From Mustelus asterias (taxonomy: Eukaryota): a stretch of DNA of 64,000 nt. Below the pieces are notes generated by a model. The model ran no database searches, was not told the DNA's origin, and saw nothing but the letters and a program-made list of their open reading frames with translations. The stretch is from contig NW_027590137.1 in the NCBI RefSeq assembly GCF_964213995.1, positions 1,116,001 through 1,180,000 on the forward strand, given 5' to 3'. Of the stretch, positions 3,476-38,995 are shown one piece after another. Made by a program: the position numbers and the translations under genes. Position 1 is the first letter of the stretch; the number at the start of each line of letters is the position of its first letter.

Positions 3476-4751
3476 ATCCCCATTCTCCTGAAAGTTTATG
3501 TCCTTCAAGTACCCATCCACTTTCATTTTTAAATAGAATCCATAGATACGGTTGGAGATTTACAACTTTTTGGGAATGAAATAGTAAAGAATGTTCCATA
3601 GAAACTAGAATTGTCTGCTCTGAATTTCTATCCTATACTAACTGTGATGACTTTTGCGAACTCATTTCACAGGATTTTGAACGAGGAATCACAGGCAAAA
3701 ATCTCAACTGTCACGTCTAGACAGAGTCATATTCCTTGGGATCTGAATATCTTGTAATATGGAACTGTAGCTACGTTATATATTTCCAGACATCTCTTCC
3801 CTCAGAGGGTTGTTCGTCTTTTGGATTTCTCTTCCCCAGGGACCAGTGGAGGCTGAGGATCATTGAATATATTCCAGTTCGGCAGATTTTTGACTGACAA
3901 GGGTGTCATGGGTTATAGGGAACAGACAAGAAGATGGTAAAGTTTTGGAATCTCAACCCCTGAGGACAGTGAAGCCTCAGTCATCAACTATTTTCAAGAG
4001 TTTGATTGATTGGTTTCTAGATATTGAAGATATCAAGGGATATGGGTTTAGTGTGGGGAGAATGATGCTGAGGTAGATGAACGAATTATCTCATTGAATA
4101 GTTTAAAAGGCTCGATGAGCCAAATGGTCGACTGCAGCTCCGATTTGTTATGGTCTCTGTGTCCAGGACAGGAAGCAGTGAGCATGGATCTGTCAATCAG
4201 CCTCAATCAGCACCTTCAGGAGAATTGGGAGGGTGAATATTAGATACAGCAGAGTGAGAATGGAGGGAGAGTGTGTGGGATGGAGATTTACAGCCTCTTG
4301 GGACTGAAATAGGAAAGAATGTTCCATAGAAACTAGAATTGTCTGTTCTGAATTTCTATCCTGTACTGACACTGATGACTTTTGTAAACTCGTTTTACAG
4401 GATATTGAAAGAGGAATCACAGGCCGAAATCTCAAATGTCACGTCTAGATCTGACAGAATCATATTCCTTGGGAGCTGAATATCATCGGACTTTGAATCT
4501 AGAAGGAGAAATGATTGTCCGGTCTGTCGATTTGAAAAGATTTCAAACATCAGTGTGACTGGAAAAGCACCAACACACTGCCACACTCGAGTGAGAGTGT
4601 TCTAGTGCTCGGACTAAAGAGCTTTAACCAGTTACACAGCCTGAATAAATATCACACCATTCACAGCAGGGACAGACTATACTCGTGTTCTGTGTGTGGA
4701 CGAGGCTTCAACTGATTGTCCACCCAAGACAGAGGCAAGGACACCTGCATC

Positions 4752-5393
4752 ATGGAGAAACCATGGAAATGTGTGGACTGTGGGAAGAGATACAGAGTCC
4801 CATCTCTGCTGGATGCTCATCGGCGCAGCCACACTGGGGAGAGGCCGTTCATCTGCTTTCAGTGTGGGAAGGGATTCACTCTGTCATCCAGCCTGCAGAC
4901 ACACCAGCGAGTTCACACTGGGGAGAGGCCATTCACCTGCTCTCAGTGTGGGAAGGGATTCACTCAGTCATCCAGCCTGCAGTCACACCAGCGAGTTCAC
5001 ACTGGGGAGAGGCCGTTCACCTGCCCTCAGTGTGGGAAGGGATTCACTCAGTCATCCGACCTGTTGGCACACAAGCGAATTCACACTGGGGAGAGACCGT
5101 TCACCTGCTCTCAGTGTGGGAAGGGATTCACTCATTTATCCAACCTGCGGACACATAAGCGCATTCACACTGGGGAGAGGCCATTCACCTGCCCTCAGTG
5201 TGGGAAGGGATTCACTCAGTTATCCAACCTGCGGGCACACCAGCGAGTTCACACTGGGGAGAGGCCCTTCACCTGCTCTCAATGTGGGGAGGGATTCACT
5301 CAGTCATCCAACCTGCAGATACATCAGCGAGTTCACACTAGCTCATCTGCTCTCAGTGTGGGAAGGGATTCTGTGATTCATCCAGCCTGCTGA
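4752..5393 (+). CDS. C2H2 zinc-finger protein A (7 intact fingers, frameshifted tail)
   Basis: MEKPWKC start, repeated C-x2-C...H-x3-H with TGERP linkers. Deletions near 5340 and 5395 destroy further fingers. Upstream exons end at ~1705 (donor GTGAGT) and 4232; last-exon acceptor at 4399-4400. Confidence 0.85.
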
Positions 5394-16774: not shown

Positions 16775-17030
16775 CATCCTGTCACTCTGTGATCCTTGTG
16801 AAATCTGAAACCAGGTATTCGCAACAAGACTCAAAGAGAATCAGCCCACTGGAGGCAAAGTCGTGAGACCGGCCAGTCCAGCAGAAAGAAACCCTCCGAC
16901 CCTCCCCATTGACCAACTGTGAGAATGAACAAAATGCAGTCCTGGATGTAATTGAGAGCAGAAACAATAACAGCAGAATCCAACCTCTGGAATCACTCGT
17001 GAACTTGTTGGTGTCTCAGCACGGTTCAAA
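16775..17030 (-). pseudogene. ZNF gene relic (end of last finger and conserved 3' UTR)
   Basis: Reverse complement of 5455-5695 and 57735-57965. Confidence 0.8.
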
Positions 17031-17550
17031 CGGAGACCATCCCATCTATACAGGTCCCACCTGCCCAAATACTGGTGCCAATGCCACATGAATTCGAAAC
17101 CATTCCTTCCACTCCAATCCTTGAACAACGCATTCGTCTTCTTAATCCTATTAACCCTGCACCAATTCGCGCGTGGCTCAGGTAGTAATCCAGAGATTAC
17201 CACCTCGTTGGTTCTGCTTTTTAATTTATTCCCTAGCTCTTCGTACTCCCTCTGCAGATCCTTAGTTTCTGTTTTGTCTATGTCATTGGCACCTACATGG
17301 ACCACGACAACTGGTTTTTGACCCTCCCACTCCAGATTCCTCTGCAGCCCAGATGATACATCCTGGACCCGAGCACCAGGCAGGCAACACAACCTACGGT
17401 ATTCCTTATCCTGGTCACAGAGAACAGTGTCTATGCCCTTAACTACACTATCCCCAATTACTACTACGTTTCTCTTTGATTTCTCCATTGCAGCAGCTCC
17501 CTGCACCCTGGTACTGCTGACAGTTTGCTCGTCCTTCTCGCAGTCATATT
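17030..17550 (-). mobile_element. CR1 ORF1 (SGNH esterase-like) fragment
   Basis: VVIGDSVVK, CLPGARV, VHVGAND, DGLRLN motifs. Confidence 0.8.
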
Positions 17551-18364
17551 TCCCATCCTCTTTTGTTGAATTCTAAAAGGCTTCCAATCCTCAGACTTGC
17601 TAATTATTTTGCAATTTTATATATTTTCTATGTAAAATGGAAAGTTCCCGCTCCTGAAGGACATTAGTGAAAAGATTTGACGAAATGTTGGCACCTTTGT
17701 CATTCATATTAATTGCATAAGGATTTTTGTTTCAGCTTCTTCAATGAATTGAATTGAAATTCCCCAGCAACCCGGGTGGAATTTGAACTCCTGTCTCGAG
17801 AGCATTGTTTCAGGATTGTGGATTACGAATTAGTAATTATATACGATACTATATGCTATACTACCTCGAGGAATATCATCACATCTAAAATGGAACAACT
17901 GAAAATACCACTCTCCTTGAGCACAGGACTAAAGGTTGAATCATAAATTCAGGCATCTGTTATGGGAGTTGAACACATTACCATTTGGATGAGAAGCGAT
18001 GTTGATTCCACTAAAAAGAAGACTTTTAGCTGATCACAGTTAGCATTTTGACATTCTGACATTTAGCTCAGTGTGTCTAGAGTTTCGGACCTGTGTGCAG
18101 TATTACACGGATGCATACAGTTTTCAGAAGCTGGCCTTCTCTCTGTACCTCAGAATTTGTAATCTTTCACCGTTTAAATATTAAACGTATTTTATATTCA
18201 TCCTGCCAAATTGGACGTTTTCACAATTGACCACATTATACTCAACTTGGCGGGGCTTTGCCAATTAATTTACTCGATTTATGTCCCTTTATCTTCTTCT
18301 TACACGCACTTCACCATTTATTTAAGACATATCTTTTTCGTTTTCTATCTTTTTCTTTTTCTAA

Positions 18365-19370
18365 ATGGAGGTCGGTCACCAGTGGTGTGCCCCAGGGATC
18401 TGTTCTGGGGCCCTTGCTGTTTGTCATTTTCATAAATGACCTGGATGAGGAAGCGGAGGGATGGGTTGGTAAGTTTGCCGACGACACGGAGGTTGGTGGG
18501 GTTGTGGATAGTCTGGAGGGATGTCAGAAGTTACAGAGGGACATAGATAGGATGCAAGACTGGGCGGACAAGTGGCAGATGGACTTCAACCCGGATAAAT
18601 GCGTAGTGGTCCATTTTGGCAGGTCAAATGGGATGAAGGAGTACAATATAAAGGAAAAGACTCTTAGTACGGTAGAGGATCAGAAGGACCTTGGGGTCCG
18701 GGTCCATAGGACTCTGAAATCGGCCCCGCAGGTGGAGGAGGTGGTTAAGAAGACGTATGGTGTGCTGGCCTTTATCAATCGAGGGATTGAGTTTAGGTGT
18801 CCGGGGATAATGACGCAGCTATATAAGACCCTCGTCAGACCCCACTTGGAGTACTGTGCTCAGTTCTGGTGGCCTCACTATAGGAAGGATGTGGAAAAGA
18901 TTGAAAGGGTGCAGAGGAGATTTACAAGGATGTTGCCTGGATTGAGTGGCATGCCTTATGAGGATAGGCTGAGGGAGCTCGGTCTTTTCTCCTTGGAGAG
19001 ACGAAGGATGAGAGGAGACCTAATAGAGGTGTAGAAGATGTTGAGAGGCATAGATCGGGTGGACTCTCAGAGGCTTTTTCCCAGGGTGGAAATGTCTGCT
19101 ACGAGGGCACACAGGTTTAAGGTGCTGGGGTGTAGGTACAGGGGAGATGTTAGGGGTAAGTTTTTCACACAGAGGGTGGTGGGCGAGTGGAATCGGCTGC
19201 CGTCAGTGGTGGTGGAGGCGAACTCAATAGGGTCTTTTAAGAGACTCCTGGATGAGTACATGGAGCGTAATAGGATGGAGGGTTATAGGTAGGTCTAGAA
19301 GGTAGGGATGTGTTCGGCACAACTTGTGGGCCGAAGGGCCTGTTTGTGCTGTAGTTTTTCTATGTTTCTA
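18365..19370 (+). mobile_element. CR1 LINE 3' fragment (RT C-terminal half)
   Basis: [22 protein letters not shown]; TTTCTATG tail. Confidence 0.9.
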
Positions 19371-19414
19371 TCTTTGTGTGGTCTGCAAATTTATCATCCA
19401 TATCTGCTCAGTAA

Positions 19415-19695
19415 ATATTACAGTGTATTCTTACAATTAATCCAGTTCTCCTTGATTACTGCTCTGTAACATATCGGTCTGTAATCTAACAATTAATCCA
19501 ATTCTCCTGGACAACTGCTCTGTGACACATCATGTTTAATCCAGTTCTCCTAGATTTCTGCTCTGTAACATATCAGTGTGTATTCCAACAAGTAAAGCAG
19601 TTCTCCTACATTATTGCTCTCTATCACTGTGTAATTGAATAATTCATCCTGTTCTCTTGGATTATGGCTCCCTAACATATCAATTTGTTTTGCAA
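19415..19695 (+). repeat. Degenerate ~56-bp minisatellite (~5 units)
   Basis: Recurrent AATTAATCCAGTTCTCCT.GA..ACTGCTCTGTAACATATC. Confidence 0.7.
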
Positions 19696-20615
19696 CCCGC
19701 TCCTGAAACAGTGTACACAAAAACACGGCGAGGGATCGCCCTCTGGCGGCGATGTGAGATAAATGGCCTCTTCTGGGGAGATCAGTGAATTCTCAGATTA
19801 CTGAACGATCTTGTAACAGGATTATGCTGCTGTATTTTTTTCTTGTTCTCATGGTTCTTATTATAATATACTTACATTCAGGTGTAACCATGTACGGAAC
19901 TAACACAAACTTCAGTCTGAATCCGCATCAATTCATTGCTTTAGCTGTTTTGAATGTTCCAGGCATTTCTGTTAAACTATATTCCTGTTACAAAATTTGA
20001 AACCACGCAATACTGATAAGATTCGAACTCTTAATAAAGTTCTCTCCACACATTGAAAGGATATAAATTTGACTCCAACCTCACATTTATCTGACAGATT
20101 GTCGGATTTCAGGCACCTGCTTCAATTTTAAACTTTCCTCAGAGTTGTCATTATGATGTTTTGGCTAACACATCAGCTGTCCTCTAATGGGGCTTGGGGA
20201 ATTTATTGAAATGGGAGACTGGGAGAAATTGTATGTTCTAAATTCTGCACGCTCCTGGAAAACGGTTGAGGGAGAGAGGGGCTTTGAGACACAGAGACGA
20301 GACAGATACTAGCGGCCAAAATATTGAGAGTGCAGCATGGACACCGAGGTGAACAGAGAACGAGGCACAGAGATAGACAGGCAGGAGTAGACATAGAAAC
20401 AGTCAGATAAAGTCATTGAGCTACAATCAATGTTGTTCGATGGCCAATTCTTGACAACACTGAGCAACAAGCCAATCCTTTCATTGGGCAACGCCCCTTA
20501 GTTTCCCAATGAGTGAAGACTGCCCATGATATAAAATTACTTTTTTACATCAGAGTACAAGAGTTGACATAATTTTACAATTCTGCTGATTTTGTGGAAT
20601 TCTTAAGCAGGAAGC

Positions 20616-21047
20616 ATGTTCTCCCAATTTTCTTTCCTAATATTGGTTGGTTTTCCTGCCCGGTGAGTCTGTGTTTAAATAGTCCCTGCCTGTTTCCAGC
20701 GTTCTCCACCAGATATTTAAGAGATTCTGTAATTTGTTGCAGGCAAAGATGAAGTGTCCCAAGATCCCCCTAAATTAACGGTTCAGGAAGGACAGACCAT
20801 AACACTGCACTGCAGTTACTGCTCTGGTACATCCAGTCTCATGGGGAAGCTCCGATTTATTTATTGACGATTTTTAACACAGGAGACATCGCTGAAGATT
20901 CTCCGAATAGATTTTCTGCTGTTTGTACAAAAGAAACAAAGCGGTCCTTTTAAGTATCGCCGGAACGCTTCTCTCTGACAGCGCACTGTATTTCTGTGCC
21001 ATGGAGCCCACACTGGTGCAGAGATATAGCGAACCCCAGACTGGAAA
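20616..21047 (+). pseudogene. TCR alpha/delta-type V-segment pseudogene (leader 20616-20662, V exon from 20743, degenerate RSS)
   Basis: Leader MFSQFSFLILVGFPA then GTGAGT donor. V exon KDEVSQDPPKLTVQEGQTITLHCSY/LWYIQSHGEAPIYLL...NRFSA.../LSIAGTLLSDSALYFCAMEP with two frameshifts. Heptamer CACACTG at 21009-21015, nonamer degenerate. Confidence 0.8.
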
Positions 21048-21057
21048 TTCCAGTTAG

Positions 21058-21076
21058 TGGTCAGCAGAGGGCGCGC
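21058..21076 (+). promoter_or_regulatory. CTCF-like motif just 3' of the V-pseudogene RSS (similar motifs at 19737-19750(-) and 23867-23886)
   Basis: TGGTCAGCAGAGGGCGC resembles the CTCF core CCASYAGRKGGCRS. Confidence 0.6.
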
Positions 21077-21877
21077 CCGCACTGATAAACAGAAGCAATT
21101 ATTTAGCCTGTGAGAGTTCAAGGTCGTAACTAAAATAACACAACACAACATTCAACATGAACAGATGAGCAGCAACAGAGGGATTGTATTAGGTGCGTTG
21201 TAACTAACATTTATACTGCAAAATTATTTTGCAAATCAATTTATTATGCCCTCACTCACGTTTTGTATTTTCATGATCTTTTCCTGTCTATCTGATTTAA
21301 TGAGCAAAACATTCTCAATCTCTACTCTCTGTATCCCATTTATCAGAGCCGGTGCATAGTGTCTATATGATTAGACCGTGCTGTTGGTTTAGACAGTTTA
21401 TAGAAAATTAATGCGTTTCACAATGTACCGATTACACTCTTTAGTTAAATCAATGTTTATTTTCCTTTCGATTGAATGTTTTCTGACAGAATTGGCAGCC
21501 CAGTGTTTTGAGCTTAAAATAACCAGGCTTTAACCATAAGACCAAATGACAAAGGCCAGGGTTAGGCCTCTCGACCTCTTGAGCCTGCCCTGTCATTCAA
21601 TGGAATCATGGCTGTCCCAACATTCCTCACGTACACTTTACTGCCCTTTCCCCGTAACCTTCGATTCGCTTACTGATCAAAAATCTATCTACATCTGTCT
21701 TACATATACACAATGACTCTACCCGCGCAGCTCGCTGTAGACGTGAGCTCCAAACACTCACAACTCTCTGAAAAAAGATATTGCTCCTCTTCTCAGTTTT
21801 CAATTAGCGCTCGCTTACTCTGAGACGATGTCCCCTGTCCCCAGACGCTTCCACGAGGGGAAACATCCTCTCAGCAT

Positions 21878-22025
21878 TTTGTAAATTGAGTTTGTGTCTA
21901 TATATGCCCTGTTTGTGAACACAACACCCACTCACCTGATGAAGAGGCAGTGCTCCGAAAGCTTGTGGCTTGTGCTACCAAATAAATATGTTGGACTTTA
22001 ACCTGGTGTTGTGAGGCGTCTTACG
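21878..22025 (+). mobile_element. Penelope-like element 3' end with hammerhead-like core
   Basis: CAC-CTGATGA-...-GAAA-GCTT-GTG at 21933-21967; same family at 49780-50070(+) and 52980-53362(-). Confidence 0.6.
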
Positions 22026-22399
22026 TCGATTGATAAAGACCTTATGCCTTTTTCATCATCCTACTAACATGCCCTTCCGATTTCAGAGATCTGTGGCCAA
22101 AGCCGCCAAGGTTCCTTTGTTCCACAGAACACAAACTTCCAAACTTTATGGTCACGTTCTTAACGTGGTTGAACATGTTGATTATCAGCCTGTAAATCCT
22201 TTCAGTATTGCTGAAGACTGGTGATAGGGACGGAGCAGATTCCTGGTCAACAAAACTGCAGAAGTCAATGGCAAACCGCTGGAGTACTTTGAAATGAACA
22301 ATCACAGAATGATCTAATGGACGTCCATGTTCACCAATTCCCTCTTAGGGCATGGTAACTGGAAGAGGAGGAGGTGGATGTCACAAGAGGCTCAGAAAG

Positions 22400-22907
22400 T
22401 GGACACTAAAAATTGGCAAATCATGCTGCAGCTTTATAGAAGCTTAGTTAGGCCGCACTTGGAATATAGTGTTCAATTCTGGTCGCCACACTACCAGAAG
22501 GATGTGGAGCGACGGAGGTTGAGGAGAGACCTGGATAGAAGTCTACAAGATTATGAGAGGCATGGACAGAGTGGATAGTCAGAAGCTTTTTCCCAGGGTG
22601 GAAGAGTCAATTACTCGGGGGCATAGGTTTATGGTGTGAGGGGCAAGGTTTAAAAGAGATGTACGAGGCAGATTTGTTACACAGAGAGTGGTGGGTGCCT
22701 GGAGCTCGTTGCCAGGGGTGGTAGTGGAAGCGGATACGATAGTGACTTTTAAGGGGCGTCTTGACAAGTACATGAATGAGACGGGCATAGAGGGATATGG
22801 TCTCCAGAAGGGTAGGGGGTTTTAGTTAAGTCGGGCAGCATGGTCGGTGCAGGCTTGGAGGGCGAAGGGCCTGTTCCTGTGCTGTAAGTTTCTTTGTTCT
22901 TTGTTCT
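22400..22907 (+). mobile_element. CR1 LINE 3' fragment
   Basis: RPHLEYSVQFWSPHYQKD; (TTCTTTG)n tail. Confidence 0.85.
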
Positions 22908-23164
22908 AGTGTATTCCAATGTCACTGGGCAGTCTGGATAACAATGTTTGCACAACGGTTTTCATCAATAAAAAAATCTTATTAAAAATAATGGCAGTCG
23001 CAATTCCGTATTTGTTAACCAACAAAACAACAATCTTCCATCAGAAGTTAATGTATGCACTTGAAACTGAATATATTAATCCGTCAAGTCTGTTTCAACA
23101 GCACCTTGCGAACCCGGACTCTCTTCCATCTAGAAGGATAAGAGGAACAACTGCATGAGAACTT

Positions 23165-23485
23165 AGAAAGGAAACTAGAACTAGAGGGCACAGCCTCAAA
23201 ATAAAGGGGGGGTCAGTTTAGTACAGAGTTGAGGAGGAACTTCTTCTCTCAGAGGGTGGTGAATCTCTGGAATTCTCTGCCCACTGAAGTGGTGGAGGCT
23301 ACCTCGCTGAATATGTTTAAATCACGGATAGATGGATTCCTGATCGGTAAGGGAATTAGGGGTTATAGGGCTCAGGCGGGTAAGTGGAACTGATCCACTT
23401 CACATCAGCCATGATCTTATTGAATGGCGGGGCAGGCTCGAGGGGCTAGATGGCCTACTCCTGCTCCTATTTCTTATGTTCTTAG
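23165..23485 (+). mobile_element. CR1 LINE 3' tail (same subfamily tail at ~33010-33150)
   Basis: AGGAACTTCTTCTCTCAGAGGGTGGTGAATCTCTGGAA; TTCTTATG tail. Confidence 0.75.
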
Positions 23486-24032
23486 AACACCATATTTTGT
23501 GGGCACCCCTTCAAGCCGCACACCATCCTCATTTTGAACCATATCGCCGCTCCCTTGCGTCAAAATTCTGGAATTCATTTTCTGTGTATGAGTACGGGCA
23601 GAGGACAACAAATTAAAAAAGTATGGAAGGAGAATTGAAAGAAAGTGAGACATTACGGGTGCGAAATACACAACCAAATGATGCGAGAAGGACAGAAAGG
23701 AAGAGATTCAGAAACGACCCAGAATGCATTGTTCTTTCAAATTACTCATATTTCCCTAGCGTCTATTTATGTAGTTGAATTACTTGAAAACACGTCTCTC
23801 AATAAAAGACCGCCAACGACGGTCCATCGACAACCTTGCACTTGCGGACAGTGTCACGTACCCTGAGTCACCGTCAGAGGGCGTTGTCGTCACATGTTTC
23901 TCCCGACTTTAAATGATGGCGACAAAACCTATAGTACCATTCGCATACCGTTGCTATTGGCAGTAACATTCGCAGTCCCATTTTTCTGCTCCCTCTCTCT
24001 CTGGTCCACCTCACGTGCCCTCCATTACTAAA

Positions 24033-24334
24033 TGGCCGGCACGGTGGCACAGTGGTTAGCACTCCTGCCTCATTGCAAAGGGGGCCCAGTTTCAATTCCG
24101 TCCTTGGGCAACTGTGTGAAGTTTTCACGTTCTTCCCGTGTCTGCGTACGTTTCCTCCCACAGTCCAAAAATGTGCAAGTTAGTTGGATTAGTCATGCTA
24201 AATTATCCCTTAGTGTTAGGGGGATAAGGTGAGTAAATACGTGGGCTTATACGGGGATAGGGTCTTGGTGTGACTGTTGTCGGTGCAGGCTTAATGGGCC
24301 GAATGGCCTCCGTCAGCACGGTAGTGATTCTATG
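24033..24334 (+). mobile_element. Diverged HE1-type SINE
   Basis: GGCACGGTGGCACAGTGGTTAGCAC head and V-domain. Confidence 0.75.
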
Positions 24335-25094
24335 AAGAGAACTTCTGTCGATTTACTTGTTTGGTACTGGTTGTATCAGAAATGCGGGCGGAGCTATGGG
24401 CGTTGTGCGGGCGTGAGTCTGCAATTCCACTCCAGGAGAATATTTCCTGAACTGCAGCGTTGCTGATTCGGGAGAAGGAAGCAGAGGCACAGCAGTCAAT
24501 ATTTTTCACTTTTTCAATTCGCGTTTCCTTCCCAATGAAAAGTAAAGAACATGCTGTTATCCTGACTGTTGTAATTTAGGTATTGCTATTCGTCAAATGA
24601 TGACTACTCTTCTTTTAAAAATTATTAATTGGGCGTCAGTCACAAGACCAAGACTTTGTCGATCACTAATTGTCCTCGAAACGGCCTGGGCAATTTGAGA
24701 GTTAGTTATATGGTTGTTGATCTGTAGTCACACACAGACCAGGCCAGGCTAGGAAGGCAGATTTCCTTCCACAAAGTGCATTAGTGAACCAAGTGGATTT
24801 GCAGTGACTGCGTTCGCAACCATCAATGCGAGTAGCTTTCAATATCAATTAATCACATTTACATTGAACCAGCTGCTGGGGTAGAATTTTGACTGCTTTT
24901 ATCCAAAATCGAATTTAAGTGTAACCAGTTGATATGATGGGATTGAACTACTTTTCCCAAAGCATAATTCTGGGTCCCTGAACTGCTTGTCCAGTGACCC
25001 CATGTTGATAATGATTAAGAAGAAAAAGCGGAAGTTCTTGAAGTTGACTCTTCCCACGATATTATATGAAAATGGGGCCACAACTACAAAGTGC

Positions 25095-25335
25095 ATCTTG
25101 TTGTCCCTGAGTTGACCTTTGAAAAGGCAGTGTCATAATTAGCTGCACCATGACAATTTGATATCCTAACCCTACTGATTTCAGGCATGGTCAGGTTTCA
25201 GTACAGCATCCACAGTACGCGTTTTACATTAGCTCAGGAACAATAAACAGGCAACTAGAGTTCACTGATCGATTTCCCTGTTCCTTTAGTAAAACAACGA
25301 CGATTGCAAAGCCCATCCACCGATATCTGAACATT
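25095..25335 (+). pseudogene. Highly degenerate Ig-superfamily V-domain relic
   Basis: GSVIISCTMTI*...QHPQYAFYISSGTINRQLEFTDRF...TTIAK, with an out-of-frame GCATGG.CAGG (AW-R) at the expected Trp position. Truncated by a CR1 tail before the second Cys. Confidence 0.35.
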
Positions 25336-25817
25336 GGAACATAAAACTTAGGCTGCCTGCGAATCCGCTCGACCCTTCAGTCAGATTACAGTTCATCTGA
25401 TCTTCCTTTTAAATCCACTTTACTGCATTGATCCTCATGAACCGTGACATAAATTTTAGTTAAAATGTTTGTTTTACTCAGCTTTAAAATTTTTCTGTGG
25501 CCCTCAGCCTCCACCGTTCTCTGGACTCTCACTGGAGTCACAGGCACGAATGCTCGGATGCTAAAGCTAAGAGAATGTGCACAGAACATTGATTGGAAAT
25601 CCACCAAATCCATCAACACTCCTTGCCCTTCCGTTCCAATAACAAAATGAAGGTATTTTTCTTGATATCCCGTTTCCAAAGCGGAACAAATCGCCCAACA
25701 GGGACACCGAATGGAGGACAAGTTGGAGAGCTTCCATTCACTGACTGTCATCTTATCAACTACCAATCTCACGGTGGCACTGGTGAGACACGGAATTGAC
25801 GCGTGAGCATTCTGAGA

Positions 25818-25827
25818 CACGTCATCA
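25818..25827 (-). promoter_or_regulatory. CRE-like element upstream of the TCR V leader
   Basis: TGATGACGTG (reverse strand) ~75 nt before the ATG. CRE-like motifs are typical of TCR V promoters. Confidence 0.4.
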
Positions 25828-25900
25828 GATTAATAAGGGTGGGGATTAGAATGGGTGTCTTCAAATATCCGATTCCTCCTTTACAGAGCGGACAGAGACA

Positions 25901-26359
25901 ATGCGGGTACTCGGCATCTGGATTGTGTGGGGGGCATTTCTAACAGGTATTTCTGGACATCACGTATGTTTTCTCATTTCCAAAACTTGGGTTGAATCTT
26001 ACTGTTGAGTGCACGTGACTCTATTCTTTATCTATTTGAACATATTTTCCAGGTCTGACCCATGGAGATTCTGTCACTCAGTCGCTGTCCTCAGATGTTA
26101 AGACAGAAGGAGACGCGGTGACATTAAACTGCAACTATGATACTGCAGAAACCTACTATTATTTATACTGGTACCGACAGCATCCAGACTCCCAGCCCGA
26201 GTACATTCTGAGGAAGTATTCGGGGGGTTATGAAGATAAAGCAGATTTTGCTAAAATCCGTTTCTCGACTGATCTCCAGACCTCGAAGAAATCCATCAGT
26301 TTGACTATCTCGGATCTGCAGTTGTCTGACGCAGCCGCGTATTACTGCGCTTTCAGCAT
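25901..26359 (+). CDS. Intact TCR alpha/delta-type V gene segment (leader exon 25901-25946, V exon 26053-26359)
   Basis: Leader MRVLGIWIVWGAFLTG, phase-1 GT-AG intron. V exon LTHGDSVTQSLSSDVKTEGDAVTLNCNY...YLYWYRQHP...PEYIL...RFS...SISLTISDLQLSDAAAYYCAFS has both Cys, the Trp and DxAxYYC, with no stops. Confidence 0.9.
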
Positions 26360-26398
26360 CACAGTGATGGAAAGCAGTCTGACTCCTGTACAAAAACT
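26360..26398 (+). other. 23-bp-spacer recombination signal sequence
   Basis: CACAGTG (26360-26366), 23-nt spacer, ACAAAAACT (26390-26398). Confidence 0.92.
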
Positions 26399-26775
26399 GT
26401 CTCAGCAAGGCAAGTGAGAGCTCCTCTCTACTGTATAGAACCTCTGGCAGATGCAGCCACAATGAGCAGCGGCGCTGTCAGCCGCTCAAACATGCGCTGA
26501 CAGGAAACCATGTTAACCTCGGATCAACTGTCAGCCAACTGTTTCCAGGAGAGGCTGAGAAAACAAACTGCAGAATCAATTAGGCCGACAGGTCCATCAC
26601 ATAGTCAATGCGTCAATTAAATCGTCCCTTCTGCTACTAATCAGTTCTGTATTCCTCTATAATCAAATCTGGATTTTAAAATCAAGCCGAGAAATAGATT
26701 GCTAACACCAAATATTAGTCAAACCTCGCCGTCAATTGTCACACAGACAGCAGACATACAGCTTACCATGTTTGT

Positions 26776-26860
26776 GGCTCGTTGGTCTGGGGTATGATTC
26801 TCGCTTGGGACAATTGCATTTAGATGCGATAGAACTTGGGTTCGTATCCTGGCCGAGCCT
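26776..26860 (+). tRNA. tRNA-Pro-derived pseudogene with a 14-15 nt intron-like insertion in the anticodon loop
   Basis: GGCTCGTTGGTCT-GGGGTATGATTCTCGCTT matches eukaryotic tRNA-Pro. Insertion ACAATTGCATTTAGA; weakened T-stem; T6 Pol III terminator at 26868-26873. Confidence 0.7.
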
Positions 26861-27359
26861 AAAAAACTTTTTTATGAATAGGATGGGAATCCCGGAAGGG
26901 TCGGGGGTTTAAGTTCAGTCGGGCAGCATGGTTGGTGCAGGCTTGGAGGGCCGAAGGGCCTGTTCCTGTGCTGTAATTTTCTTTGATCTTTGTTCCTCTG
27001 ATTCCGAAGTCCCTATTAAATAGAAACATTCACAGTTTACAAATAAACAGAACAGAAACCTCCCTCGAAACACATCATGATATTCTCCAATAATAGGTAG
27101 CATGAAATTGTTCGAAAATGAACTGATACTGAAGAAAGATTGCCATATTTTCCCATACAGTCTGTACGACGAATGTAAGAAAGAACATGTATGAAAATAG
27201 TTGCAGAGATCGGTTACTGAGTGTCACGAACTCAATAGTAGATATATATGAAAATTCAATGAGAGAATGAATTAATAGCTTAGGAAGGAGAAAGGAGAAT
27301 ATGCAAAGTAACATTTAGATATGCTGGATAAATAAAACAATCTAATTATCTTTCCTCGG

Positions 27360-27644
27360 CTGTGACCCCCATGGATTCCACAGACCACATCTGGATTGAA
27401 GGCAATGAGGATGACAACAGCAACATCTGGACAACCGCTTCCACATTCATCGTCCTGTTCTTCCTGAGCATTTTCTACAGCATTTTCTGGTGAACGTGAG
27501 ATGATTCAATTCACCCACATTTCAAACTGGTAGAAGGGATTGGAAAAATCTCTAAATGTTTCAGAGATTAAAAACTCTAACATTAATGTCCCGCATCATA
27601 AACATCTGCTTCATTGTTGTACCTCTCTTTTACAGATCAAGTGA
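27360..27644 (+). pseudogene. Immunoglobulin heavy-chain transmembrane exons TM1 (27360-27495) and TM2 (coding 27636-27644), damaged
   Basis: VTPMDSTDHIWIEGNEDDNSNIWTTASTFIVLFFLSIFYS carries the IgH CART motif. A duplicated AGCATTTTCT frameshifts before LVN|GTGAG. TM2 reads TTTTACAG|ATC AAG TGA (IK*). TM1 acceptor is GG rather than AG. AATAAA at 28008 and 28045. Confidence 0.85.
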
Positions 27645-28834
27645 CGGGTTGAATTTTGGACGCTGTAGATTTCCCTCGGTGACTCAAACAGTATATTATC
27701 TCAGCTTATCATTCTGCACCTGTAACTAAGACAAGCGTGTTCGGTATTTCAGTTTTCAATATGAAATGTACGAGGGATTTCTTTTTGTTGTAATGCAAAC
27801 TATAGTTGATAGTTTCCCTGTAGTTTAAATTTCATGTACACATTTTTCTCGTTTCTTATTCACAATTGTTCATTTCCAGATATGTTTAGCTCCCTTTAAT
27901 CATTCTTGTGTCTGTAACAGCTGTACATATATTGGACAGCTCGGAGCAGATGTGTTCTATTCGAAATATGAAGCTAAATCTTTATGTGCACTTTTGTCAA
28001 CTTTAAAAATAAACTCTTCTATTCAACGTTCTCTGAAAATTTAAAATAAATCTTGAATGAAAAATCAACCAATTCTGACTTTTCTTAACTCCTTTCGCCA
28101 AAGCCCATCGACACAGCTCCATTTTCCGATTACACGGTTACCCCCTTTTCCCAGAAAGGTATTTTTCCCCAGTCCTGTCTGGGACGTGGCTGAACTCAAG
28201 GCTGTTCAGTGAACGAGTCACTGCGCCACCCAGTGAATCATCTGTGTAAGGACACTTCACGTCTGCCTTTTTGATGATAAACTCCAGAGACAGAACGATT
28301 GAACAGCGAGGAGAACCTCGGTGATTTGACACATGAACTGGTCGGTCACCTTCGAGTGTCAAGCAATTCTCAACAGCAAAGGCTCTGCTTCATCAGAGGC
28401 CGATACAGCGCAGTATATGGAAGAATAAATCTTCCTTTACACTGTCCCACCTAACACTGCAAAGATCGCTGCAATGTTGGGAAGCAGAGTAAAACTCTCT
28501 CCCGATTGTCCAATTAATTACTTCAAAGGCAGGGACGCCACCGGCTAGATGATAAAACTCGGGGAGAACAGTGGCGTATTAACCATGAGAGACTGGGATG
28601 TTTACCGCAAAGACATGTAATCGAGTACACATTTCCAAACGATTGCCAGCGTTTGGGGCCTATGAGATATACTCGGGGAAAACACGCAGAAATTCCCAGA
28701 TTCCGAGATCAATCTGAAACAACAAATATGCAGAAATTATGGGAAGTGATCCCAGAGAATACGGCTTGTTCTGATACCGACACTCCAGCTTCGCATTTTC
28801 TCTTAGTGACACAGATAGATATGTTGTCCCCATG

Positions 28835-30070
28835 TCCTGATAAATGCGAAGTGATGCATTTTGGTGGGAATAATGTAGGGAGGAGCTACACGATAAATGG
28901 AAGAACCATAAAGGGACCTGGGTGTGCAAGTCCACAGATCTTTGAAGGTGACGTCACAGGTGGAGAAGGTGGTGAAGAAGGCATATGGCATGCTTGCCTT
29001 TATAGGACGGGGCATAGACTATAAAAGTTGGGGTCTGATGTTGCAGATGTATAGAACGTTGGTTCGGCCGCATTTGGAATACTGCGTCCAGTTCTGGTCG
29101 CCACACTACCAGAAGGACGTGGAGGCTTTGGAGAGAGTACAGAGGAGGTTTACCAGGATGTTGCCTGGTATGGAGGAGCTTGGTTATGAGGAGAGATTGG
29201 GGAAACTGGGGTTGTTCTCCTTGGAAAGACGGAGGATGAGGGGAGACTTAATAGAGGTGTATAAAATTATGAATGGCAAAGATAGGGTGAACGGTGGGAA
29301 GCTTTTCCCCGGGTCGGTGGTGACGTTCACGAGGGGTCATAGGTTCAAGGTGAAGGGGGGGAGGTTTAACACAGATATCAGAAGGACATATTTTACACAG
29401 AGGGTCGTGGGGGCCTGGAATGTGTTGCCGGGCAAGGTGGTGGAGGCGGACACACTGGGAACGTTTAAGACTTATCGAGACAGCTATATGAACGGAGTGG
29501 GAATGGAGGGATACAAAAGAGTGGTCTAGTTTGGACCAGGGAGCGGCGCGGGCTAATTGTTCTTTGTTTCTCGTTTCAAGGCTTCATTCTATGATCATCT
29601 TGCTGGTGCCAGTACAGAGCGAGACTGCGGATAGTTGGGAACCTGTCTCGGGGGCAGGGAATTCAGATGGTGTTCGTAAAACAGAAGTGGAAATGAATAG
29701 GGTTGGGAAGCATTTTCTGATCAGGGCCAGTGTGATCTCCTGGACTCGTTTCGATCGCCACAGGGGGTCGGAGAGGAATTTCCCAGATTTTCTTTTCCCC
29801 ATATTGGCCCTGGGGTTTTCACTCTGGGTTTTCGCCTCTCCCTGGAGATCACATGGTCTGGACTGGGGGGGTGGGGGTGAGTTAATAGGTTGTGATGAAC
29901 AAAGCATCGTAGCTGTGAGGGACAGCTCGGTGGATAGGATATTAGGATGTAGATAGGCTGGAAAATTGGGCGGGGATCCTGGATTCAGGATTCAATCCTG
30001 GACCGGGGAGCGGCGCGGGCTTGGAGGGCCGAAGGGCCTGTTCCTGTGCTGTATTGTTCTTTGTTCTTTT
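28835..30070 (+). mobile_element. CR1 LINE 3' fragment with extended 3' UTR
   Basis: ORF 28924..29529 is the CR1 RT C-terminus; TTCTTTG tail at ~30060. Confidence 0.85.
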
Positions 30071-32915: not shown

Positions 32916-34611
32916 CATGCCGAGAGTTTCCATTGCCTGGGAGAGGAACGTGCAGTTTAAGTAGAGACTGTTGCCCGGGATGCGCCAGTGTGTGTGTTTA
33001 AGACGCAAAAGTAGGGGAATTAAGGGTTATGGGAGCAGGCGGGTAAGTGGAACTGATTCACTTCAGATCAGCCATGATCTTATTGAATGGCGGGGCAGGC
33101 TCGAGGGGCTAGATGGCCTACTCCTGCTCCTATTTCTTATGTTCTTATGTAGAAGTATTTCCTGGAGTCCTCAGCTGTCACCGGTGCAACTGTCAGACTG
33201 ATGATTCTGTAAGTTTTGCTCAGGGAGGAGGAAAAGCGACGCCTGGAAAATGTGGCGCTGTCGCTGAAACCGTCAGTGCAGCGGATGAGAATATACTCGG
33301 GACTCCCACCCCCATGGCTGGGTGGAGAGGTTCCCGGCACCAGACCAAACAAGCCCTCTCCACCTCTGTGGAGGAGCAGGCGATGGTCATGGTGGCTCCC
33401 TGCTGGACCCTCACCTCTGCCTCTGGCTGGTGGATGACTGCGGATGCAGCCAGGCTACCTGAAGGATAGAGAAAATTAGAATTAAGTGGAGGTTCCAGCC
33501 ACTCTATCGATTTGAAGCTGGGGAGGTGCGAGGGAGGGGGAGGATAGGGTCGGCCCAATGGAGGGTGGCCCCAGCTTCCACTGTAGGCATCGTGCTGCCC
33601 TTGGAGGTAGCCAGCAGTCGCGGTTATGCCCTGTGAGTGCATCAGTACCATTGCACGAAGCTGAGCAGGAGGGTGGTGCTCCTTGGTGTGCCGCCTGGCC
33701 AGAGACTTGAAGGATTAAGGTCTGGCTAGATCAATATCTACAACATGTATCCAAAACCAAATGAGGTGTGGGATGGAATTTGAGTTGATACCCGACCATG
33801 TTTTTAATTCGATGGCAGCATTTCAAATTTGTTAACGCAGAAACAGGCCATTCGGCCCATGGGCTTTTGCTGGCGTTTATTCACCCCAACTCCACTTCTT
33901 CTCAAACTATCAGATTTGATGCCTATTACTCTTTCTCTCCACCTGAAAGCCTCCCTGTGATATATAAACACTGTTCATGTCACATAGTCCATGTTCTACA
34001 GTTCCACGTTCTCACCATTCACTTAAGGAATTAAAACATGCTTCGCCTAAATCCCACACTAATGGCTCTGTGATTTGTTCTGTCCTGGGATATGAGTCGC
34101 GAGACTGAGCCAGTATTTACTGCCCCTGCTTAATTGCCCCCCTTGAGAAGAGAGTGAGGAGCTGCCTTCCTGGAGTGCTGTGTGTCCAGGTGCACAAGGT
34201 ACACTCAACAGTACTTTTAGGGGGAAAGTGATGTCCCCCATGGTTTTGACCCAGCGACAGTCGCAGAAAGGTGATTTTAGCTTCATGGATGTGTGTGGAT
34301 TGGAGGGAATACTGCAGGCGATGCTTTTCGTGTCCATATGCATCAAATTTATTTCCAAGTGCTGGATGTTTTGGGTTCGGAAGGCAGTGTCGAAGGAGTG
34401 TTTGGTGAACTGTTCATATCTATGATAGGTTTGCCTTTTCTCACTACTGAAGTTTTTAAATAACTATTTGTAAAATTCCAATCATTAAGTAAACTCAGTC
34501 ACTAGTAATATTGCTGTGTACTTGTCTCGAAAGGTCAACATTAAATATAAGAGTATAAAATAATTTATTGAAACGAAATCAATGAGAATCACTAAATTAA
34601 CTTGATTTATC

Positions 34612-34900
34612 AGTGTCACAAGTAGGCTTACATTAACATTGCAATAAAGTTACTGTGAAAATCTGCCAGTCGCCACACTCCAGCGCCTGTTCGGTTACAC
34701 TGAGGGAGAGATTAGCACGGCCAGTGTACCTAATCAGTACATCTTTCGGACTGCAGGAGGAAACCAGAGCACCCAGAGCAAACTCACGCAGACATGAGAG
34801 AAACATGCAGACTCTGCACAGTGACCCAAGCCGGTAATCAAATCCGGGTCCCTGGCGCTGTGAGGCAGCAGTGCTAAACAATGTGCCAAAATGCCGCCCC
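34612..34900 (-). mobile_element. HE1-related SINE variant with a different tail (also 60764-61022+)
   Basis: Same tRNA-like head; tail TTTCACAGTAACTT.ATTGCA...AAGCCTACTTGTGACA. Confidence 0.7.
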
Positions 34901-35214
34901 TAATAATTAATTAAATCAACCACTGCGTATATTGCTCTACTTTTTCTCCAAAAAACAACATTCAGTGTGGAAGAATAAAATACTTTCTTGAGAGGTAATC
35001 AAGGAGAATCTGAAGTGTTACGCAACTGAGATGATTGCTGCTTAACCCTCGTGGGTGATCCATCTGCAAGTTGTATTTGCAATGCTTAGAATAGTGCAAT
35101 ATATCTTGACTCGCTTCTTCATAGTGAGGAACAGGCCTGAAGAGGAAGTGCAGTTTTTCGACTTCCACTGAAATAGGAACTATAAAGCCAGCTTGTTTGT
35201 AAATGATGTGTTAC

Positions 35215-35339
35215 CAAAATCTTGATAATAAGAGTGGAGTCAATGGAGAATGCGACGGTCATCGAAAAAGTTACTGAATGAACCAATTGAGAAGCTTGAA
35301 TTAGGAACAGCGTGTGAGACTGGGTTGTCACTATGTCCA
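35215..35339 (-). pseudogene. Possible orphan transmembrane exon resembling a TCR TM region
   Basis: CCATTACAG acceptor and GTAAC donor, phase 1 to 0. Encodes DIVTTQSHTLFLIQASQLVHSVTFSMTVAFSIDSTLIIKIL; next acceptor gives WKSKN. Confidence 0.3.
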
Positions 35340-35769
35340 CTGTAATGGAAGTGAGACCGAGCACATTGACAGATAAGAGCGTGATAGAGGACAGTGAAAC
35401 AGAGACACCAAGAGAGGGGGGGGGGGGGGGGGGGGGGTGAACATTTTGTTGGCTTTCCTGCCACCTGCTGGAAGAAATAAGAATTTCTCCATCAGCAATC
35501 TCCTGCTTTGCTTTGGAACACAGTAGTTACTTCTGAAATCTTTTCAGAAGGGCGTTGCAGAAACACGGCTGTGATCATTAAATAGCGGCACGGTGTAAAA
35601 GATTAATTGCAGCGAAAAGGCAAGACTCGCAAGAAGGCAGTCATACCCAAACACAAGCACACAGACACAGAAACACACAGAGTCTCTCACTTCCAGCAAT
35701 CTCCCTCTGTTGGACTCTCTTCTTATTTCACATATATACTCACACACACTATCTTGCATTTCAAGGTAT

Positions 35770-36720
35770 GGTACCTTAACAAATGCCCTCTGAAAATATA
35801 GATATACCATATCTACAGGATCCCCAGTGTCCACTTTGCTTGTTACATCTTCGAAGAACTCTAGCAAATTAATCAAAACGATTTGCCCTTCGTAAAACCA
35901 TGCTGACCCTAATGGATTGCATTTTGGCATTCTAATTGCCCCGTTACTACAATCTTAAAAATGGATTCTAATAACTTTAGAACGACAGGTGTCAAACTAG
36001 CTGGTGTCTGGTTTTATACCTTCTGTCTCCTTCCCGCTTTGAATATGGGCATGAAATTATCTTTTTTCCAACCCACTGGAACCGTTCCCACATCCAGGAA
36101 ATTTTGGAAGATTATAACCAATGTGCTGACTATCACTTTCTTTAAGACCATAAGCTGGAGGCGATTCGGCCCTGGGGACTTGACTGTCTTCAATCCCAAC
36201 TGTTTGCTTAACACTTTTTCACTATTGATCATGATTTTTCTCAGTTCCTTCCTTTCTATTACCTCTGCATTTCCTGTTGCTATTGTGATGGTGCTCGATT
36301 TGCCCAGCGTGATAACTGAGGCAAGCTAATGATTGAGAGTTTCCACCATTTCTATTTCCCCCACGATTAATTCCCTAGTCGAATCCTCCAAGGGTCCAAT
36401 TATCACATTCACTCCACTCTTCACTTTTAGGTATTTAAGATGCTTTTGCAGTACTTCTTTAAATGTTGTGCGTGTTTTCTTTCATAATTTACCTTTGATG
36501 TTTTTGTTACTTTTCAGTAACCCATTGTTGATCATTACAAGTTTCCCAATCCTCCCGTCTGCCACAGGCCTTTGCAATATGATATGCATTAGCTTTTCTT
36601 TTCATGCTATCTTTAGCTTCCTTGCTTAGCCATGGATATTTCTCCCCCTCTTACAGTCTGTATTCCTCATGGGAATGTATTTTAGTTGGGAGGAATTAAT
36701 TGTCCCCGTGAGCATTTGCC
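35770..36720 (-). mobile_element. Old CR1 fragment
   Basis: KSPGPN, LEFFEDVTSKVD remnants. Confidence 0.65.
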
Positions 36721-37780
36721 ACTGATCATCAGTATTGTTAATACTGTAACTAAATAGTTTATTTTCAGTAATCGGGTTATTATATCACACAAGGAGTCCA
36801 TTCAGCAACTCAAGTCCATGCTAACTCTCTGTAGAGCAATCCAGTCAGTCCCATTCCCCCTTAAGTTCATAAGATATAGGAGCATAATTAGGCTATTTGG
36901 CCCATCGAGTCCACTCCGCCATTCAATCATGGCTGATATGTTCCTCATCCCGTCTGTATCCCTGTTCCCCTGCCAGTCTATTTTGACTGCCCATCTAATT
37001 TCATTTTGAAATATTGAATGTATCAAAATGCACCGCCCTCATAGCCAAAAAATTGATATTCAAGAATGTTCACTGTCGAAATAATGTTCTATCTCATAGC
37101 CTTGCTGTACTTCTATTTATTAAACTGGTCCCCGATGTTACATACATTTTACTTCGCTAAGTATATTTAGGTATTTAGACTCGCAGCCTGCATGAAGATA
37201 TCTCAGTGCTGGAGAAGAAGCAGTGAGCATGGATTTGTTGATCAGCATGAATCAACACCTTCAGGAGAATTGGAAGGGTGTATTATACAGACAGCAGAGT
37301 GAGGATACAGGGATAGGGTGTGGGATGGAGATGTACAGATCCAGAGGAACGAGAAAGGAAGAAATGTTCCACAGAAACTAGAATTGTCTATTCTGAATTT
37401 CTGTTTGATACTGACAGTGATGACTTTTGTAAACTCATTTTACAGGAAGTTATAAGGGGAAGATTTGCTGCCAGCAATCTCAAAACATGTTAATGCTTAA
37501 TAGAGTCACTCAAATGATCAGAACCTGAATATCATCAGACCTTGAATCTAGAAGAAGAAATATTTATCTGTTTTTTCTGTCACATCAGTGTGACTGGAAA
37601 GGCACCAAGGAACACAGAGCTGAGTGAGAGTGTCCAGTACACTGACTGTCAAAAGACCAGTGACACAGACTGCAAAAATATCACATCATTTACAGCGGGG
37701 ACAGACAGTGCACATGCTCTATGTGTGGATGAGGATTTAACTGATTGTTAAACCTGGAAAGACACAAGGACATCCACACC

Positions 37781-38995
37781 ATGGAGAAACCGGGGAAAGA
37801 TGAGGATTGTGGTAAGGAATTCCATATCCCGTCTGCACTGCAAACTCATCAACATATTCACACTGGGGACAGACTGTTCCCCTGCATCAAGCGTGGGGAA
37901 GGAGACTGCTCCCCATCTGCCCTGAAGATTCATCAATGCAGCCACACTGGGGAGAGGCCCTTCATCTGCTCTGAGTGTGGGAAGGGTTTTCTCCAGGCAG
38001 CCGACCTGTGGAATCACCAAGCAGTTCACAGTAGGGAGAGGCTGTACACCTGCTCTGAGTGTGGGAAGGGATTCACTCAGTTATCCCACCTGCTGACACA
38101 CCAGCAAATTCACACTGGGGAAAAACCGTTCAACTGCTCTGAGTGTGGGAAGCAATTCAATCATTCATCTGAACTTTTGAATCACCAACAAATCCACACC
38201 GGAGAGCGACCATTCACCTGCTCCGACTGTGGAAAGGGTTTCACTCAGTCATCTCACCTGCAGATACACCAGCGAGCCCACACTAAGGAGAGGCCTTTCA
38301 ACTGCTCTGAGTGCGGGAAGTGTTTTATTCAATTATCACACCTAGTGACTCACCAGGGAGTCCACAGGAGGGAGAGGCCGTTCCCCTGCTCCGAGTGTGG
38401 GAAGCGTTTTATTCAGTTATCACACCTAGTGACACACAAAGGAACCCACACAAGGGAGAGGCCATTCAGCTGCCCCGAATGTGGGAAACGTTTTATCCAA
38501 TCGTCACACCTAATGTCACACCAGGGAGTTCACAGCAGGGAGAGGCCATTCGTCTGCTCCGAGTGTGGGAGGCGTTTTATTCAATCATCCCACCTAGTGT
38601 CACATCAGGAGGTTCACACCAGGGAGAGGCCATTTCCCTGTTCCGAGTGTGGCAGGGGATTCATTCAGTTATCCGACCTGCAGAATCACCAGCAAGTTCA
38701 CACCGGGGAGAGGCCGTTCACCTGCTCTGAGTGTGGGAAGGGATTCACTCGTTCAGCTAACCTGCAGGCACACCGACGTGTTCACACCAGGGAGAGACCA
38801 TTCACCTGCTCTGAGTGTGGGAAAGGATTCGCTCTTTCATCTTATCTGCAGAGTCACCAGCAAGTTCACACTGGAGAGAGGCCGTTTATCTGCTCTGAGT
38901 GTGGAAAGGGATTCATTCAGTCATCCCACCTGCAGACACACCAGCGAGTTCACAAGGATTCACAAAGGGATTCACTCGGTCATCCCACCTGCTGA
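37781..38995 (+). CDS. C2H2 zinc-finger protein B (12 intact plus 2 degenerate fingers)
   Basis: CACCATGGAGAAACCG start; tandem C-x2-C-x12-H-x3-H. Upstream exon ends at 37277, acceptor at 37444-37445. Confidence 0.88.
   Translation: MEKPGKDEDCGKEFHIPSALQTHQHIHTGDRLFPCIKRGEGDCSPSALKIHQCSHTGERPFICSECGKGFLQAADLWNHQAVHSRERLYTCSECGKGFTQLSHLLTHQQIHTGEKPFNCSECGKQFNHSSELLNHQQIHTGERPFTCSDCGKGFTQSSHLQIHQRAHTKERPFNCSECGKCFIQLSHLVTHQGVHRRERPFPCSECGKRFIQLSHLVTHKGTHTRERPFSCPECGKRFIQSSHLMSHQGVHSRERPFVCSECGRRFIQSSHLVSHQEVHTRERPFPCSECGRGFIQLSDLQNHQQVHTGERPFTCSECGKGFTRSANLQAHRRVHTRERPFTCSECGKGFALSSYLQSHQQVHTGERPFICSECGKGFIQSSHLQTHQRVHKDSQRDSLGHPTC

Follow-up and report, generated by a model that had tools for sequence, protein, structure and literature searches.

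A mosaic antigen-receptor island in Mustelus asterias with an intact T-cell receptor V segment, and the duplicated TCR-delta units of the same assembly

Introduction

Here we analyse a 64,000-nucleotide stretch of the 3.68-Gb assembly (G000) of the shark Mustelus asterias (hereafter the window; C105:1,116,001-1,180,000), in which T-cell receptor (TCR) variable (V) segments lie beside the remains of an immunoglobulin (Ig) M gene. Unless a contig is named, positions count from the first letter of the window; C105 is an unplaced contig, and labels such as C71 or C104 denote contigs of the same assembly. A sequence-only reading of the window had seen a V pseudogene (20616), a V-like relic (~25100), an intact V (25901) and Ig heavy-chain (IgH) transmembrane (TM) exons, all on the plus strand, and we recovered each of them, the TM exons being of IgM type. 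The partners that have left traces of joining are the diversity (D) segments of duplicated TCR-delta miniclusters, which are invisible within the window.

Results

The antigen-receptor island

The island consists of the following features, where RSS stands for recombination signal sequence and SINE for short interspersed nuclear element.

20616..21015, plus strand: TCR alpha/delta V pseudogene, with leader (20616-20662), frameshifted exon and heptamer (21009-21015), the nonamer lost
25126..25311, plus strand: decayed V relic, 15.3 bits (maximum of 200 shuffles 8.7), accompanying the intact V in paralogues
25901..26359, plus strand: intact TRAV/TRDV-type V, with leader (25901-25946), GT-AG intron (25947-26052) and V exon (26053-26359)
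26360..26398, plus strand: 23-RSS of the intact V, CACAGTG-23-ACAAAAACT, with a consensus heptamer and one nonamer mismatch
26777..26993, plus strand: SINE-like insertion of 217 bp in the V 3' flank, with a degenerate tRNA-like head and a high-copy repeat tail, present in 6/30 paralogues
27016..27017, plus strand: breakpoint between V 3' flank and IgM intron, with 2-bp microhomology (TT) and no RSS at the joint
27016..28847, plus strand: orphan IgM 3' tail, with intron, TM1 (27375-27495), TM2 (27636-27644) and poly(A) signal (28008-28013)
33152-33480, minus strand: V relic, 30.2 bits

The segment at 25,901 is built as a TRAV/TRDV gene, with a split leader, a V-set exon (Pfam, E=6e-17) holding two cysteines and a tryptophan, and a 23-RSS at its 3' end, and its single-domain PDB matches are TRAV/TRDV. 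The V-gene phylogeny that the sequence-only reading had called for (23 rows, including TCR Vs of other sharks and rays) left it out of the IgH/TAILV clade (100/99) and grouped it with cartilaginous-fish TCR Vs (89/88, not starred). A whale-shark V modelled with a joining (J) segment and a delta-type constant (C) region has 66% identity to the intact V, the NCBI gene models used in this comparison being automated. The PDB matches, the tree and the IgM tail together bear out the proposal that TCR alpha/delta V segments stand here beside IgH material.

The other Vs of the island have decayed. The exon of the pseudogene at 20,616 is split over three frames (profile scores of 16.8, 15.2 and 22.6 bits), and compared with a relative it carries a 22-nt deletion near the first complementarity-determining region (CDR1) and a 9-nt deletion that took the nonamer. 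An RSS-like site with a 22-nt spacer at 25,211 was considered as the signal of the second relic and discarded, as it falls within the relic exon itself. The three Vs counted earlier on the plus strand stand, and the fourth, on the minus strand, had been missed. The window had also been described as devoid of J and C; indeed, neither the window nor C105:1,066,001-1,504,370 (438 kb, to the contig end) yielded a D, J or C. The last ~340 kb of the contig (C105:1,160,000-1,504,370) are without any antigen-receptor segment.

Fusion of the V flank to a dead IgM tail

The stretch from 27,016 to 28,847 is 75-88% identical to the 3' end of IgM clusters. Since the TM exons of these donors are preceded by C-mu exons and a secretory tail, the TM exons of the window are of IgM type. 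Throughout, C-mu, secretory tail, NARTCR and TAILV are presumptive names, taken from position and protein similarity and not from a named reference sequence. The TM exons lack a functional acceptor, an intact frame and upstream C exons: GG replaces AG at the TM1 acceptor (27373-27374), and TM1 also has a 7-nt deletion with a frameshift. The tail is dead and contributes nothing, and the IgH cluster once thought to adjoin the V array is reduced here to a fused fragment.

Thirty paralogues of the V were read, and alignment shows how this fusion arose. A repeat first inserted behind the V, this SINE-like insertion having no counterpart in 24/30 paralogues; a break with 2-bp microhomology then fused the V flank to an IgM intron; the fusion was copied, giving C104 and C122, which with C105 are the three paralogues bearing the full IgM tail; and a second break left only 72 bp of IgM sequence, now followed by a zinc-finger (ZNF) exon, the arrangement found in another 3/30 (C71:14.0, C89, C124). 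Because the breakpoint at 27,016 shows TT microhomology only and no RSS, it is not a RAG product. No piece bridging it was present among the matches listed, which are contigs, of unrecorded kind, from four runs. The tRNA-like head of the insertion was called by ARAGORN at relaxed settings only, and at default settings no tRNA or Rfam gene was found at 26,776. On C122 (410-415 kb) the insertion, breakpoint and IgM tail recur at 99% behind another V of the family (92% at the amino-acid level), whose protein is identical to that of the V at 4.7 kb on C229; this suggests exchange between paralogues. The V-plus-IgM-tail island by itself is ordinary debris, an accidental fusion around an intact, multi-copy V.

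The V family across the genome

Among the best 150 scored of 1,985 candidates, 39 match the intact V at 84% identity or more. The wider family occupies both strands of C71 between 6.5 and 17.4 Mb and recurs on dozens of contigs (0.05-2.6 Mb) where IgM and TCR-delta units are found as well. The V exon is open in all 30 paralogues read, both cysteines are kept in 29 of them, and the leader pattern is matched in 17. Its RSS has 34 near-identical copies assembly-wide and none in the reversed control. The sequence-only reading took the V for an orphon or for the edge of a locus; it is probably neither, as its paralogues spread through what is the already published antigen-receptor complex of sharks, with its IgM and TCR-delta units. 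The IgM clusters that C105 itself carries and the spread of the V family through C71 point to C105 lying inside this complex.

Window positions 5,246-40,109 are common to C105 and C104 at 99.3-99.7% identity, and the intact V differs in two CDR1 residues from its twin in this 99.7%-identical block. We did not accept a plain allelic relation between the two contigs: the match stops near 40-48 kb of the window, beyond which C104 leads to an IgM cluster, and nine further-on stretches of C104 gave no match at 97% or above. The two blocks may be either alleles or young duplicates. The IgM cluster on C104 (1,170,859), 164 kb downstream of the twin V, has an apparently extended or fused D with a degenerate 3' signal.

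Several family members are placed for rearrangement. On C106, C110 and C115 they lie in inversion geometry to a free D-delta at 200 kb, 495 kb and ~1.0 Mb, respectively, and the member at C71:16.06 Mb is in deletion geometry to J-alpha, which it precedes by 2.3 Mb.

Nineteen TCR-delta units and one TCR-alpha array

A protein search of the assembly, for which the query was the C region taken from a V-J-C protein of a shark, returned 19 C-delta exons and 19 TM exons without stops, and a DNA search returned the same 19 C exons. All 19 C exons are open, have AG/GT borders and measure 312 or 315 nt; the 18 of 312 nt encode 13 distinct proteins with no frameshift. Over 3.47 kb the units are 83-99.97% alike and fall into nine groups at 99%, two of them with four and five members. 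Three units lie on the 20-Mb scaffold C71 (7.14, 11.04 and 12.27 Mb), ~98% alike over 3.5 kb with differing 5' ends, and one further lineage has no more than 83-90% identity. Should two haplotypes be present in the assembly, this would amount to at least ten C-delta loci. Protein searches of two other sharks gave one C-delta-like match each (50-53%) and were too insensitive for copy counts, and a C1-set family search returned no TCR C exon among its best 150 matches.

In the stretches read, a D with 12- and 23-RSS and one to four J precede C-delta in each unit. Therefore the repeated unit is TCR-delta, a D flanked by both signal types, a few J with 12-RSS, and a TCR C with TM exons being the D-J-C layout of such a gene. 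Eleven of the 19 units are unrearranged, seven are pre-joined (with five distinct junctions), and one (C3311) is cut by the contig end before its D. In the unrearranged units an IgH-like V, which position and tree mark as TAILV type, precedes a free D, up to four J, and C; in C115, C123 and C154 this V is either broken or seemingly truncated. Further upstream, 3/11 (C106, C181, C71:12.2) have a NARTCR supporting V followed by a stack of three or four 23-RSS spaced at 61 bp (C106:637,685-637,906; C181:336,739-336,579; C71:12,229,725-12,229,885).

TCR-alpha is represented by one J-alpha/C-alpha array at C71:18.37-18.43 Mb, with 33 J (motif scan), no D, and C at 18.42 Mb; the 66 kb preceding its J yielded no C-delta. 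The C-alpha TM exon has one extra copy, on C546. Within the array, ~12 kb of short tandem repeat (C71:18,419,700-18,431,700) separate the C-alpha exon from its TM exon.

Coding joins and signal joints in the assembled genome

Seven join events were recognised, five coding joins and two signal joints, the coding joins being V-D or D-D in type. Six units have a V joined to D-delta, of which C119, C96 and C436 have one common junction and C401, C850 and C71:11.02 one each of their own. Since the common junction is present in three diverged copies, it does not come from a somatic event. The seventh unit, on C138 (218,469-204,751, minus strand), begins with an open IgM VH that has a promoter region, leader, 23-RSS and IgM D1 12-RSS, and continues through a fused IgM-D1/D-delta and the D-delta 23-RSS to four J-delta and C-delta. 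Its left side is 85-91% identical to IgM clusters and its right side 96% to delta units, and it is an assembled IgM-VH/TCR-delta chimera.

The signal joint at C71:14,376,803 (14,376,777-14,376,842) fuses a D-delta 12-RSS exactly to the 23-RSS of a TCR V; over 808 bp the flank of this signal and that of a V on C471 are 100% identical. At C110:113,697 (113,670-113,735) a D-delta 12-RSS is fused heptamer to heptamer to a NARTCR-type RSS. A search for D-delta signal joints yielded these two in the assembly and none in the control. The signal joints thus run precisely from heptamer to heptamer and obey the 12/23 rule, and the coding joins lie at RSS borders, as RAG joins do. Scattered TCR Vs have reacted with D-delta in the duplicated units, as the signal joints show. 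The earlier suggestion of long-range RAG use holds to this extent, namely that scattered Vs with 23-RSS do join within the complex; no join of a V to an IgH D was seen in the few IgM clusters read. Several of the units likely carry inherited recombination scars.

Both signal joints sit behind an open TAILV-type V, and no D-J-C follows them in the stretch read. The pre-joined V at C71:11.02 was tried as the reciprocal partner of the joint at C71:14.377; the families do not align, and we regard them as separate events. Likewise, C850 is not a plain duplicate of C71:12.27, being pre-joined to a different supporting V (C850:36,291). C850 and C71:12.23-12.25 Mb are 99.97% alike at C-delta, yet the C71 unit is unrearranged, possibly reflecting a polymorphic germline join.

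Other features of the window

The remaining features are these, LINE standing for long interspersed nuclear element.

4716..5393, plus strand: C2H2 zinc-finger exon (Pfam)
8795-8833, minus strand: RSS-like site with a consensus heptamer
17013..27087, plus strand: duplicated TCR-V block, with an inverted copy at C71:14.0 Mb (95-97% identity)
33147..36731, minus strand: inverted 5'-flank piece of a TCR-delta minicluster, including the V pseudogene 33152-33480, with 86-93% identity to 10 clusters
37745..38995, plus strand: C2H2 zinc-finger exon (Pfam)
40730-43744, minus strand: LINE-type retroelement open frame of 1,004 codons, apparently young

ZNF units had been said to flank the island; their exons are indeed present (4.7-5.4 kb and 37.7-39.0 kb), but 10-15 kb off and not directly beside it. 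The RSS-like site at 8,795-8,833 was rejected as a V signal, as no V lies behind it (0.5 bits with the V profile), and it recurs in ZNF-rich sequence at C71:14.427 Mb and C105:1,223,744. The island is thus pieced together, mosaic-like, from V block, IgM tail, the flank of a delta unit and ZNF units.

Discussion

Our preferred explanation, to which we give a probability of roughly 0.7, is that the island is a germline mosaic whose V is of a kind joined by RAG to one of many TCR-delta miniclusters or to the single J-alpha/C-alpha array. The intact V would likely be joined over a long distance to the D-J-C of a delta minicluster or to J-alpha/C-alpha; this copy would be within reach of a partner and used somatically, and several delta units would be expressed. 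On the pattern described for shark Ig clusters (PMC6795676, in the parts drawn on here), the coding and signal joins would have arisen through RAG in germ cells. The broader proposition, towards which we lean by a small margin, is that TCR-delta forms an antibody-style minicluster family of at least ten working loci, remodelled by germ-line RAG and fed by scattered Vs. Germ-line RAG would on that proposition fix joins of NARTCR supporting V to D, delete or flip units, and have made the heritable IgM-VH/TCR-delta gene.

Several observations weigh against these views. The V family of the window takes part in 0/5 coding joins and 0/2 signal joints, and 30/30 RSS copies examined (of 34) remain behind their V. 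No D or J occurs over the 362 kb of C105 downstream of the intact V, such that this copy may be out of reach, and neither the protein nor the DNA search matched C-delta on C105. The selection signal in the V is weak (framework ratio 0.77, CDR 1.53), and the C-delta ratio of 0.97 is near neutral. The copy number comes from one assembly, with close protein matches that appear to stem from that same assembly and are not independent, and near-identical contig pairs (C71/C850, 99.97%) mean that 19 overstates the locus count. Finally, a second-sample contig (S2) does span the joint at C71:14,376,803, with a short side of 29 letters against a threshold of 31.

It is possible, though we think it distinctly less probable, that this copy of the V has been stranded as a passenger, or works for TCR-alpha alone; it would have been carried into a ZNF duplication unit and lie too far from every D and J, and C-delta amplification would be irrelevant to it. 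The empty 438 kb of C105, the absence of the family from all seven join events and the death of two neighbouring Vs fit such a history. Yet leader, splice sites, exon and RSS are all intact, two CDR1 residues have diverged from the C104 twin within a nearly identical block, and other family members share contigs with free D-delta.

We consider it unlikely that the multiple C-delta units and their pre-joined forms are artefacts, whether uncollapsed haplotypes, false duplications or T-cell rearrangements of the sequenced tissue. This would account for the near-identical contig pairs, for the C401 join lying <1 kb from its contig start and for C850 being joined when its C71 twin is not, and the second-sample bridge falls 2 letters below threshold. 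Against it stand the three C71 copies, ~2% apart with different architecture, and the third lineage at 83-90%; the 13 distinct proteins in 18 exons without frameshift; the junction common to C119, C96 and C436; and groups of four to five copies, more than two alleles would give.

The suggestion of an orphon V array rearranging in trans to IgH D, yielding TCR-V/IgM hybrids, is less probable again. The signals are 12/23-compatible, the IgM cluster on C104 with its intact 5' 12-RSS lies on the same strand as the twin V, and joining in the opposite direction, of IgM segments to D-delta, has been fixed at C138. The V family is probably not orphon, however, the C105 stretch read has no such IgM cluster, leaving the geometry possible on the C104 twin block alone, and no V-to-IgH-D join was seen in the few IgM clusters read of many, no dedicated search having been made. 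That the V and the TM exons make up a single chimeric gene for an IgM-anchored V domain is very improbable: they stand 1 kb from each other on one strand, a poly(A) signal is present, and three copies retain the arrangement, but the unrearranged V has no splice donor, which normally comes from J, the TM1 acceptor is mutated and the frame shifted, and the TM is lost in three other copies.

Comparison with known systems

The comparisons here draw on parts of the cited papers. In four elasmobranchs, IgM clusters, NARTCR, TAILV and TCR alpha/delta Vs share one chromosome in an antigen-receptor complex (Flajnik et al. 2025, PMC12227049). TCR-type V exons are described there between IgH clusters, with both orientations, IgM pseudogenes and fragments in Table S1, and the interspersion of TCR V segments with IgH material in our window is alike; as far as those parts of the paper go, TCR Vs between IgH clusters are therefore already known. 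The portions used describe TCR alpha/delta of this complex as a translocon, and Table S1, which rests on gene models and may miss copies, has one delta-constant row each for stingray and catshark, immediately ahead of TCR-alpha in both, and no such row for the remaining two species. The assembly studied here, in contrast, has 19 C-delta units, and the 66 kb ahead of the J-alpha array yielded none of them. The island itself is ordinary; what appears to be new is the amplified and probably self-remodelling TCR-delta minicluster system.

Shark IgH miniclusters are many self-contained V-D-J-C units, some partly germline-joined (PMC6795676, as excerpted). The units here resemble them in being repeated and in part pre-joined, and differ from them in that the unit is a TCR-delta gene, has up to four J and is also joined by outside Vs. 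Shark TCR genes are described as translocons, with only Ig genes clustered, in the passages of PMC6795676 and PMC12227049 used here, so many TCR-delta miniclusters in one shark would break this rule. Multiple shark C-delta units are not reported in the portions of the literature searched (including PMC5931798 and PMC3964593); the primary nurse-shark papers fell outside that scope, and a prior description is possible. At least ten delta loci would make the one-receptor rule of a T cell testable, and with it the timing of RAG in germ cells.

In nurse shark, the excerpted sources describe somatic IgM/IgW-TCR-delta trans-rearrangement, TAILV directly before D-delta, and NARTCR as a NAR V with a supporting V (PMC12227049, PMC6795676, PMC5931798). 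The likeness is an IgH V with TCR-delta D-J-C; the difference is that the C138 chimera stands in the assembled genome, from IgM promoter, leader, VH, 23-RSS and 12-RSS through the fused D to four J-delta and C-delta. Recombination between linked Ig and TCR loci has been proposed, in the part of PMC12227049 consulted, to create new receptor genes, for which the C138 unit and the signal joints would be direct DNA evidence.

The TCR-mu of marsupials and monotremes is TCR-delta-derived and clustered, with an IgH-like V and a germline-joined supporting V, and marsupial TCR-mu is flanked by ZNF genes (PMC7615758, in the sections drawn on). Clustered delta-derived units, an IgH-like V and a joined supporting V recur here, a likeness of layout only. 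TCR-mu, as described there, is a separate locus with its own C, whereas here young C-delta copies (83-99.9%) lie inside the antigen-receptor complex, and the joins are V-D or D-D and not complete V-J. We found no separate locus, no diverged C-mu and no fully joined second V; the copies are C-delta paralogues beside IgM. If the minicluster proposition is true, this shark would show an intermediate of the kind proposed for TCR-mu, and a living parallel to the origin of TCR-mu and of IgH/TCR-delta hybrids.

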